DNA of 64,000 nt from a virus, in IMG/VR virus record IMGVR_UViG_3300045988_122866, positions 90,982 to 154,981 of that record, one strand, 5' to 3'. Below are positions 58,231 through 58,779 of the stretch, in pieces; the stretch's first letter is position 1, and each line of letters starts with the position of its first letter. Below the pieces are notes generated by a model that was not told the DNA's origin, did not search any database, and was given only the letters and a program-made list of their open reading frames with translations. Position numbers and translations under genes: made by a program.

Positions 58231-58779
58231 TGGCGGGAGAGGAGAGACTCGAACTCACGACAAACCGCGGTTGCTTACACATCAGCTTACCATTTTCTTA
58301 CTACTTCCTCCAACTCATAATCTTTCGCCCAAGTAATACCTCTTACTTGATTATTTTTAGGTGGAAGAATACGAAGTCTTTTATCTGCTCCGCACTCTTC
58401 CACTGGAATTAAATAACATTTTCCATTAAAAGTAGTTACGAAGTAATCAATTTCTTCGTTAGTATATTGATGATGAACTATCTTTCCGTCTTTCCTGTGA
58501 GAACTTCTACCTGAAAAAACAAAAGAAGCTCCATCATCTTCAGTTCGCGATGTTTTAGCTTGAATTCTAATAAATTTACCATTTACATCAACCACAAAAT
58601 CATAACGCTCACAATCTCCATAAGGAGTAAGAACATTATAACCAAGTTTCATAAATGCTAACATTGTTTCAAGCTCGGTAATATTACCTTTTTGTTTACT
58701 ATTCATTTCATTTTTTTTATAAGAAAATGATAAGGTCAAGTAAACAGCCGCGTGCTCTAACCAACTGAGCTACACTCCC
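58231..58779 (-). tRNA. tRNA gene (Asp- or Asn-like) split by a ~477-nt insertion carrying the PD-(D/E)XK ORF; 5' exon 58748-58779, 3' exon 58231-58270
   Basis: 5' exon GGGAGTG-TA-GCTC-AGTTGGTTA-GAGC-A-CGCGG-CT.. ; 3' exon ..AA-CCGCG-GTTTGTC-GTGAGTTCGAGTCTCTC-CTCTCCC-G-CCA (anticodon stem CGCGG/CCGCG; acceptor 6/7 complementary). Confidence 0.5.
58287..58739 (-). CDS. PD-(D/E)XK-like nuclease encoded inside a split tRNA gene
   Basis: ERYDFVVD..IRIQAKTS resembles a PD-(D/E)XK core; flanked by tRNA 5' exon (58748-58779) and 3' exon (58231-58270). Confidence 0.45.
   Translation of the reverse strand: MTLSFSYKKNEMNSKQKGNITELETMLAFMKLGYNVLTPYGDCERYDFVVDVNGKFIRIQAKTSRTEDDGASFVFSGRSSHRKDGKIVHHQYTNEEIDYFVTTFNGKCYLIPVEECGADKRLRILPPKNNQVRGITWAKDYELEEVVRKW

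Follow-up and report, generated by a model that had tools for sequence, protein, structure and literature searches.

To our knowledge, all tRNA introns of bacteria and of their viruses self-splice, nearly all of them belonging to group I and a few to group II, and protein-dependent splicing of tRNAs is regarded as an archaeal and eukaryal trait. The mobile tRNA intron bearing an endonuclease gene is known as a kind; the absence of its defining ribozyme is what is new in the element described here. We analysed a 64,000-nucleotide (nt) stretch of viral DNA (IMG/VR record IMGVR_UViG_3300045988_122866, positions 90,982 to 154,981; hereafter, the window), on the minus strand of which a tRNA-Asn gene is interrupted in its anticodon loop by a 470-nt insert encoding a homing endonuclease. 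We favour, tentatively and at slightly less than an even chance, the reading that this insert is a mobile, ribozyme-free tRNA intron excised by proteins, the tRNA halves being rejoined by an RNA ligase. The homing of the cassette at the DNA level is well supported; whether and how the tRNA is restored is what we infer.

The closest described relatives are the tRNA-fMet intron of Synechocystis and the other bacterial group I tRNA introns whose endonucleases belong to the family PF11645, all of which resemble the insert in carrying a homologous endonuclease, in lying in the anticodon loop and in being mobile by homing. The Synechocystis intron, which encodes I-Ssp6803I in an open reading frame (ORF) of 150 amino acids (aa), is 655 nt long (PMC1995217), the others exceed 500 nt, and all have a ribozyme of about 200 nt, a 5′ exon whose last base is U and a G as the last base of the intron, and self-splice (PMC1995217, PMC13011429). 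The phage insert differs from them in having about 50 non-coding nucleotides, a C at its end, an insertion site between tRNA positions 36 and 37 (36/37) and no ribozyme signal.

Archaeal and eukaryal bulge-helix-bulge introns, which are sealed by RtcB or Trl1 and among which we count the split tRNAs of Nanoarchaeum, are alike in other respects: they have no ribozyme, pairing in the anticodon region extends the stem, their removal needs an endonuclease and a ligase, and some of the archaeal ones carry homing endonuclease genes. However, that motif has two 3-nt bulges, 4 bp apart, in which the splice sites lie, at the canonical site 37/38, whereas the phage insert lies at 36/37 in a helix that is continuous from U33-A37 and has no 3-nt bulges, and its host is a bacteriophage of Bacillota-type hosts. 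An alternative bulge-helix-bulge pairing does not form, and no match to PF01974 (the EndA family) was found among the ten other window proteins scanned against Pfam.

Two further systems have to be considered. RNase III-excised intervening sequences of 23S rRNA, and tRNA scaffolds, share with the insert a long end-to-end stem in a stable RNA and the lack of a ribozyme; 23S rRNA works in pieces without ligation, whereas a tRNA broken in the anticodon loop should not decode. Free-standing homing genes target phage tRNA genes and live among them, as do T4 SegB and the HNH genes beside tRNA arrays (PMC8421152). This kind, which includes an HNH gene of the window (59274..59759) and one relative of the endonuclease studied here, is intergenic, whereas the insert is housed within an anticodon loop and its RNA has come to pair with the host tRNA. 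Full-text literature searches returned no account of endonuclease inserts that lack a ribozyme and occupy the anticodon loop of a phage tRNA; the same literature describes PF11645-bearing group I tRNA introns in bacteria and free-standing homing genes in tRNA arrays.

The interrupted tRNA-Asn gene

The segments 58743..58779 and 58231..58272, both on the minus strand, are the two halves of one tRNA, with 470 nt between them. Exon 1 (37 nt, 58743..58779) contains the acceptor 5′ strand, the D arm, the anticodon stem 5′ strand CGCGG and C32, U33, G34, U35 and U36; from 58779 it reads GGGAGUG-UA-GCUC-AGUUGGUUA-GAGC-A-CGCGG-CUGUU. Exon 2 (42 nt, 58231..58272) contains A37 and A38, the anticodon stem 3′ strand CCGCG, a variable loop of 7 nt, the T arm, the acceptor 3′ strand, G73 and CCA, and reads, up to 58231, AA-CCGCG-GUUUGUC-GUGAG-UUCGAGU-CUCUC-CUCUCCC-G-CCA. 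The insert (UACUUGACC...GUGUAAGC; 58273..58742, minus strand) takes its bounds from intron-less alleles, by presence and absence among sister contigs, and has a G+C content of 32%, against 58% for the exons.

ARAGORN called no tRNA here when run without introns; with introns allowed it called a single tRNA, 58231..58779, with a 470-nt insert in the anticodon loop. Each tested joining of the halves gave a valid cloverleaf. In the joined tRNA 6 of the 7 acceptor pairs form, the anticodon stem is CGCGG/CCGCG, G-CCA is encoded, the variable loop has 7 nt and the T stem contains one U.U mismatch. A previous reading made from the letters alone (the sequence-only reading) had proposed a tRNA split in the anticodon loop by an ORF for a PD-(D/E)XK nuclease, with these same complementarities in the acceptor and anticodon stems. 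The ARAGORN call, the joined cloverleaf and the protein matches given below bear it out, apart from the insert length of about 477 nt, which is 470 nt, and the exon limits 58748-58779 and 58231-58270, which become 58743..58779 and 58231..58272.

ARAGORN named the tRNA Asp(GUC), with the insert between positions 35 and 36. This assignment would fit the rules of group I, with an exon ending in U and an insert ending in G, and group I introns at tRNA position 35/36 do occur in Patescibacteria (PMC13011429). We rejected it, because a scan of viral contigs for the uninterrupted arm GAGCAYGCGG-CTGTYAA-CCGCRG gave 114 matches, every one of which had T at the deciding position (114/114, Asn(GUU)), and because the sister alleles are tRNA-Asn. 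The host tRNA, whose isotype the sequence-only reading had not given, is hence Asn(GUU), interrupted between U36 and A37 as judged from the intron-less sister alleles, which fix the junctions as ...GUU|UAC...AGC|AA.

Immediately around the gene, a promoter-like site (TTGATT-17-TATAAT; 58820..58848, minus strand) lies about 40 nt 5′ of the tRNA. It matched the consensus at 10 of 12 positions in our scan and, judged by the consensus match alone, probably drives the whole pre-tRNA, endonuclease ORF included. An internal promoter built on a conserved TTGACC was rejected, given its weak -10 element and inconsistent spacing. On the other side, between the CCA end of the tRNA-Asn and a tRNA-Leu(UAG), there is a 240-nt spacer (57991..58230, minus strand), higher in G+C than its surroundings and with T-arm-like hairpins, which is kept in sister contigs both with and without the insert. 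Considered as an external ribozyme or structured RNA, the spacer was discarded: its folding z-score of 0.14 gives no hint of unusual stability, and it has no Rfam match. In Enterococcus phage EFP01, the mobile unit is the insert alone.

Intron-less alleles and homing

The comparison with intron-less alleles, which the sequence-only reading had put forward as a check, proved informative in two groups of genomes. Nine contigs share the upstream flank of the window: six have an intact tRNA-Asn(GTT) and three have the insert at the same 36/37 site. The second group is that of the Enterococcus phage EFP01, which has the same arrangement as the window and an ORF that is 68% identical in DNA. The 5′ flank and exon 1 of EFP01, up to U36, are matched by 29 sister Schiekvirus (Enterococcus) phages, and a tRNA-Asn is annotated at the equivalent site in 8 of the 10 sisters listed. 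When EFP01 is aligned with one of them, phiSHEF16, the two differ by 463 bp cleanly inserted after T36 and before A37, with matching flanks and neither duplication nor deletion.

The exons add a record of movement. The insert ORF products of the window and of the contig L002 are 99% identical, and the tRNA-Asn exons that surround them differ; those of L002 nearly match L223, an intron-less sister allele. The window exons are chimeric: the acceptor 5′ strand and the D arm match the intron-less sisters, and the anticodon stem, the 7-nt variable loop and the T-stem 5′ strand do not, with the T-stem U.U mismatch at the end of the foreign tract. We take this mosaic to be a co-conversion tract, the classic footprint of endonuclease-driven homing. 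Presence and absence at identical loci, near-identical inserts in different tRNA-Asn alleles and the co-conversion tract together strongly imply homing, and by the same comparisons this homing appears recent and the interrupted alleles young. When phages co-infect, the endonuclease would cut the anticodon stem-loop of those tRNA-Asn genes that have no intron, and repair would then copy the 470-bp cassette, with some flanking exon sequence, into the cut allele.

Short metagenome contigs were also considered as possible transcripts of the excised intron; the one contig inspected is a fragment.

The endonuclease

The ORF (58287..58706, minus strand; 139 aa plus stop) encodes a PD-(D/E)XK homing endonuclease of the I-Ssp6803I family. 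It matched Pfam PF11645 (PDDEXK_5) with E=4e-32 and 111.5 bits (cut-off 26.1) over profile positions 1-137 of 138, that is, across the whole domain, and PDB 2OST, the I-Ssp6803I crystal structure, with E=2.5e-10. The likeness to this nuclease family that the sequence-only reading had pointed out is thus confirmed; the ORF which it gave (58287..58739, 150 aa, from a TTG) is too long, since the homologues and the Pfam match start at MNSKQKGN, and the true start is the ATG at 58706. Among 16 relatives, down to 24% identity, D36, K51 and D87 never vary and D40 and Q49 hardly do, and we would assign these residues to the active site.

A large public protein collection holds 664 clusters of homologues, the only named one being a "hypothetical protein". 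In the longer relatives (inserts of 630-830 nt) the extra length comes only from a C-terminal extension of the ORF. At two loci (L020, 2977..3420; L029, 2998..3417) conserved positions of the endonuclease ORF are occupied by 2-3 in-frame stops, which means either that the copies are decaying or that another stop codon has been recoded. The L029 host tRNA has the anticodon GCU, which pairs perfectly with the tail of the insert, and a mismatched anticodon stem. One relative, 56% identical, is free-standing (L147, about 2001..2420): this PF11645 gene lies 13 nt upstream of an intact tRNA-Asn(GTT), without the flanking RNA rod described below, and could represent the ancestral or the escaped state of the element.

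Search for a ribozyme in the insert

The sequence-only reading had found too little room for a canonical group I core and had left two ways out, an ORF overlapping the ribozyme or a different class of element. The first observation holds: 36 nt precede the ORF and 13 nt follow the stop codon, which gives the insert about 50 nt of non-coding RNA. The Synechocystis intron has about 200 nt of it, and a genuine group I intron of the same window 289 nt. The latter, 736 nt long, interrupts a tRNA-Leu(UAA) gene (37646..38471, minus strand) at the classical U|AA site, between U34 and A35, ends in G and contains a 148-aa ORF of HNH type (37807..38253); it is probably the "first split tRNA" of that reading.

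That the insert splices itself, through a group I core hidden in the ORF or through a new small ribozyme made of the rod and its internal loop, is nonetheless an alternative to consider. In its favour, the insert occupies the anticodon loop, the I-Ssp6803I family is otherwise found in tRNA group I introns (PMC13011429, PMC1995217), the 5′ exon ends in U in Asn hosts, and the loop sequences YUGAC/CUGAUGU are conserved in the clade of Asn- and Lys-type inserts. A core hidden in the ORF should freeze synonymous sites, yet synonymous-codon identity over 22 homologues is flat along the ORF (0.51-0.71, overall 0.61), which makes it unlikely. The ends are also wrong for group I: the insert ends in C and, in other host tRNAs, in A or C (Gln-type and Lys-type inserts end in A, Ile-type in C), never in the obligatory G, and Gln-type inserts follow G36 instead of a U. 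In addition, the insert has no internal guide hairpin to pair with the 5′ exon, which pairs instead with the 3′ end of the insert. Group I introns have a P3-P9 core with a G-binding site, of about 180 nt or more, the omega-G end and a 5′ exon U paired to a guide sequence; we found none of these here.

Similarity to true group I RNA is at most marginal. In local comparisons, the non-coding RNA of the window tRNA-Leu intron scored 88 and 74 against an ORF-less 218-nt tRNA-Leu intron (L011, 4833..5138), the positive control, shuffles scoring about 17; the same non-coding RNA of the window intron scored 22 and 28 against the insert, the value of 28 being reached by 1 of 200 shuffles. Rfam scans of the window and 26 loci, by gathering threshold and by E-value, returned no group I or small-ribozyme match, and no small-ribozyme family appeared at E<=10. 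We discounted this absence of matches, because RF00028 also missed both genuine introns, that of the window tRNA-Leu and that of L011. The internal loop is absent from Ile-type inserts, so there is no universally conserved catalytic core. Taken together, we regard self-splicing as very unlikely; an ORF overlapping a ribozyme does not fit, and the evidence points to an element of another class. The internal loop was also inspected as a possible hammerhead, hairpin or K-turn, and these readings were rejected, in that the motifs misfit and the loop is not universal.

An RNA rod that joins insert and anticodon

The ends of the insert fold with each other and with the anticodon loop into one long rod, which was the minimum-energy fold in all of the 17 non-redundant Asn-type inserts folded, the window included. 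In order, it consists of the anticodon stem, a C32.A38 mismatch, helix a, an internal loop and helix b, with the ORF looped out. Helix a, supported by the minimum-energy folds and by covariation (UGC/GCA in L013, for example), stacks the first three insert bases, UAC (58740..58742), on the pairs U33-A37, G34-C(-1), U35.G(-2) and U36-A(-3); its 3′ strand (58273..58278) supplies GUA for those three bases and AGC for the anticodon GUU. The internal loop has a 5′ strand UUGAC (58735..58739), conserved as YUGAC in the Asn/Lys clade, and a 3′ strand CUGAUGU (58279..58285), conserved regardless of whether its UGA is used as the stop codon. Helix b, which is 15 bp in the window and 12-16 bp across Asn-type inserts, pairs the ORF 5′ untranslated region (CUUAUCAUUUUCUUA, 58720..58734) with the last codons, the stop codon and one more base (UAAGAAAAUGGUAAG, 58286..58300); 8 of its 10 modelled pairs are changed on both sides among homologues. 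All of these features are on the minus strand.

The pairing shows strong covariation over some 35 phage loci and several tRNA isotypes. RNAalifold recovered the rod from a 15-sequence alignment, with changes on both sides in 15 of 22 pairs. Paired cells reached 95.4%, against 34-49% when the partners were slid by 1-3 columns, and none of 500 shuffles reached any of five pairing measures. The rod is under selection. Its G.U pairs make the structure strand-specific, and therefore a feature of the RNA and not of the DNA. One of them, U35.G, is kept in 15 of 15 intact copies and is never replaced by a Watson-Crick pair. The two junctions lie on opposite strands of helix a, where an offset of 3 nt between them leaves 3′ overhangs.

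Host tRNAs and distribution

Viral contigs yielded 35 loci with close relatives of the endonuclease, and another 9 loci came from contigs of Bacillota metagenome-assembled genomes that resemble phage tRNA arrays. Nearly all lie in a tRNA anticodon loop, mostly that of tRNA-Asn; the other hosts are Gln(UUG), Lys(UUU), Ile(GAU), Thr(UGU) and Ala(UGC). Four loci (L031-L034) that had looked like Leu(UAA) were reassigned, the body and anticodon arm being those of tRNA-Gln(UUG), identical to intron-less tRNA-Gln. Wherever the sequence permits only one solution, the site is 36/37.

The last three bases of the insert follow the host. They pair with the anticodon in 9 of 10 lineages, with a chance of about 0.05 per lineage (CAA in Gln, AAA in Lys, AUC in Ile, ACA in Thr, GCA in Ala and AGC in Asn hosts; AUA/AUG also occur), and the junctions are therefore always on facing strands of helix a, staggered by 3 nt at the 3′ side. 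Stem mismatches per tRNA are 0.64 in 28 interrupted and 0.66 in 241 uninterrupted tRNAs. The decay of exons and ORF expected of a disrupted pseudogene was not seen: the ORF is intact and its homologues are conserved, L029 being a decayed copy.

In the same genomes, the anticodon loops of other tRNAs contain short inserts of 44-123 nt, which have no ORF and resemble tRNA "minihelices". The tRNAs concerned lie in the window at 36285..36427 and 50220..50418 (both minus strand), and elsewhere at L033 4622..4742, L010 4069..4190 and 4887..5020, and L030 3882..4030. Every one of these inserts combines an acceptor-like stem of 7 bp with a T-arm-like hairpin, which stacks on the 3′ strand of the stem and is followed by N-CCA (once CCCU); when everything from the first stem base to the CCA is removed, a 7-nt loop with U33 and A37 is restored. 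The restored tRNAs are Lys(UUU), Gln(UUG), Ile(UAU), a CUA suppressor (in L010), Leu(UAA) and Glu(UUC). The insert positions vary from 32/33 to 35/36, and the inserts are too small for any ribozyme. The only tRNA-Lys and the only tRNA-Gln found in the window are both interrupted in this way. These minihelix inserts may form a second ribozyme-free intron class, released perhaps by RNase P and an activity that forms CCA ends, and the interrupted tRNAs suggest that a general way of rejoining tRNA halves exists. Literature searches found nothing on inserts of this type.

A different ORF-less insert, a plain hairpin of 31 nt that lengthens the anticodon stem to a rod, interrupts a tRNA at L017 4367..4471 (and also at L018 and L019); it may be a remnant of the endonuclease-type insert.

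Cutting and ligation, or no splicing at all

In the reading that we favour, the whole pre-tRNA would be transcribed from the promoter of the tRNA itself, and the insert ends, pairing with each other and with the anticodon, extend the anticodon stem into the rod. A protein endonuclease would then cut both strands of the rod at the junctions, and an RNA ligase would join U36 to A37 to give a working tRNA. The cutter would be a double-strand-specific RNase of host or phage or, less likely, the homing enzyme itself. We favour such cut-and-ligate splicing because the tail has been adjusted base by base to whichever anticodon it meets, because U35.G is kept in every intact copy, because the short ORF-less inserts interrupt otherwise intact tRNAs of the same genomes, and because genes for an RNA ligase, for an AAA_33 kinase, for a metallophosphoesterase and for an RlaP-like protein are present in the window.

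The ligase gene (24864..26240, minus strand) encodes a protein with an N-terminal OB fold that is 47% identical to annotated Bacillus phage RNA ligases; its Pfam matches, to RNA_ligase and to the PHA02142 OB fold, are weak and below the Pfam cut-off. It is a candidate for sealing the tRNA halves. The metallophosphoesterase (18913..19473) and the adjacent AAA_33 kinase (19458..19982), both on the minus strand and both identified by Pfam matches, are a candidate pair for healing RNA ends. Genes of RNA-repair type thus lie at 18913..19982, 24864..26240, 28808..29614 and 34190..35719, all on the minus strand, and the set also includes the RlaP-like nucleotidyltransferase (a weak match) and a DUF2828/DUF7788 protein.

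Several points weigh against this scheme. We know of no endonuclease that cuts double-stranded RNA with a 3-nt stagger, and RNase III leaves overhangs of 2 nt. The internal loop, being specific to one clade, is not a universal recognition site. Only 6 of the 35 insert-bearing contigs also have a close RNA ligase homologue, and tblastn found no match of the window ligase in Enterococcus (Schiekvirus) phages, where the annotation is nearly all "hypothetical". The intact exons do not prove that function is retained, because the interrupted alleles are young in evolutionary terms. The window has a second tRNA-Asn (56425..56497), so the interrupted copy may be dispensable, and EFP01 is the sole carrier of the insert among its 30 matching Schiekvirus genomes, so the insertion may be merely tolerated.

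The main alternative is that the insert is never spliced, a possibility that we take seriously even if we doubt it. According to this explanation, the endonuclease gene broke a dispensable tRNA and now uses it as promoter, processing signal and protective scaffold: the cloverleaf and the extended stem would give RNase P/Z processing and protected mRNA ends, as in engineered tRNA scaffolds; the pairing of tail and anticodon would only lengthen the rod, or conceal the anticodon from the synthetase; and RNase III might cut the rod without re-ligation, as in the intervening sequences of bacterial 23S rRNA. It requires neither a ribozyme nor a splicing enzyme, of which none is known here, and besides the second tRNA-Asn and the single carrier among 30 genomes it accommodates the young alleles spread by homing, with a T-stem mismatch made by co-conversion in the window copy, the L147 relative, which shows that the gene needs no intron context, and the decayed L029, with its ORF stops and mutated anticodon. 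On the other hand, a tail retuned to each host anticodon, which carries the helix exactly across the two junctions, shows a precision beyond the needs of a scaffold, and U35.G, kept in 15 of 15 intact copies, has not been improved to a Watson-Crick pair. A scaffold for mRNA also leaves unexplained the ORF-less inserts in sole-copy, otherwise intact tRNAs. Finally, the same phage keeps its HNH homing gene inside a real self-splicing intron, and therefore tRNA function seems to matter in this phage.

As a special case of the cut-and-ligate reading, the homing endonuclease could itself be the splicing endonuclease. The rod, in which nt 27-36 pair with 43-37 plus the 3-nt tail, reproduces in RNA the DNA target from its left half to its centre, and the junctions fall where a symmetric enzyme centred on the anticodon stem-loop would leave 3-nt 3′ overhangs. 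On DNA, I-Ssp6803I reportedly cuts around the anticodon so that 3′ overhangs of 3 nt are left (Bonocora and Shub, 2001), a pattern that the stagger of the junctions would match. A metal-dependent PD-(D/E)XK cut would give 5′-phosphate and 3′-OH ends, ready for an ATP-dependent RNA ligase, and the archaeal tRNA-splicing endonuclease belongs to the same fold superfamily (PMC3424549). However, the rod does not mimic the right half of the DNA target, the geometric match follows in part automatically from an insertion at 36/37 together with a continuous helix, and no member of the family is known to cut double-stranded RNA. We therefore hold this special case to be very improbable.

Other elements of the window and of related loci

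The sequence-only reading had suggested a third split tRNA, made of an HNH gene (59274..59759) and an orphan tRNA 3′ half (59204..59262). This did not hold up. The HNH gene (minus strand, TAG read as sense) stands alone: it has its own AGGAGG site and its own TATAAT-like box, and the genes that it matches in many phages are free-standing HNH genes. The supposed half is part of a stand-alone tRNA-like element (59204..59291, minus strand) and not an orphan 3′ half, because it carries both strands of its own 8-bp acceptor-like stem; it also has a T-arm-like hairpin, ends in G-CCA and may have CCA as its anticodon, and it overlaps the last codons of the HNH gene. Neither ARAGORN nor Rfam called a tRNA at 59204..59291.

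Two other tRNAs are odd: that at 59878..59948 (minus strand) has a 6-nt anticodon loop, is reported as "???" by ARAGORN and scores 42.7 bits in Rfam, and that at 52783..52857 (minus strand) was called by Rfam only, with 46 bits, and would have C at position 33 if its anticodon is UCU. Directly 3′ of the intron-containing tRNA-Leu there is a RAGATH-33 RNA (37504..37632, minus strand; 126.8 bits, above the gathering score). Many long ORFs of the window need 1-8 in-frame TAGs to be read through (for example, 13682..14986 and 59274..59759), and a suppressor tRNA with a CUA anticodon is encoded at 49868..49957 (minus strand); the phage appears to read TAG as a sense codon.

In the related loci, ROOL RNAs (265 and 341 bits) and tmRNA genes occur in the phage tRNA arrays, the interrupted tRNA-Asn being a few hundred bases away (L001 3921..4507, in Enterococcus phage EFP01; L025 4611..5235; L023 2503..2925; L025 5918..6219).

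Meaning for phage tRNA biology

If protein-dependent splicing is demonstrated, the element may turn out to be categorically new. In any case it is a common mobile element, with at least 664 protein clusters in public metagenomes, several types of phage tRNA as hosts and one cultured Enterococcus phage among its carriers, and standard annotation misses or misnames the tRNAs that it interrupts, as ARAGORN did here with Asp. Should the homing enzyme cut an RNA mimic of its own DNA target, which we think hardly probable, it would be a living example of the idea attributed to Belfort and Weiner, according to which tRNA-splicing endonucleases reportedly arose from intron-encoded DNA endonucleases after the loss of the ribozyme. 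If the tRNA is not spliced, the insert would show selfish genes travelling within a stable RNA in a manner not seen before. If it is spliced, there would be an undescribed tRNA splicing pathway in bacteria or phages, and the "RNA repair" ligases of large phages would gain a routine job.

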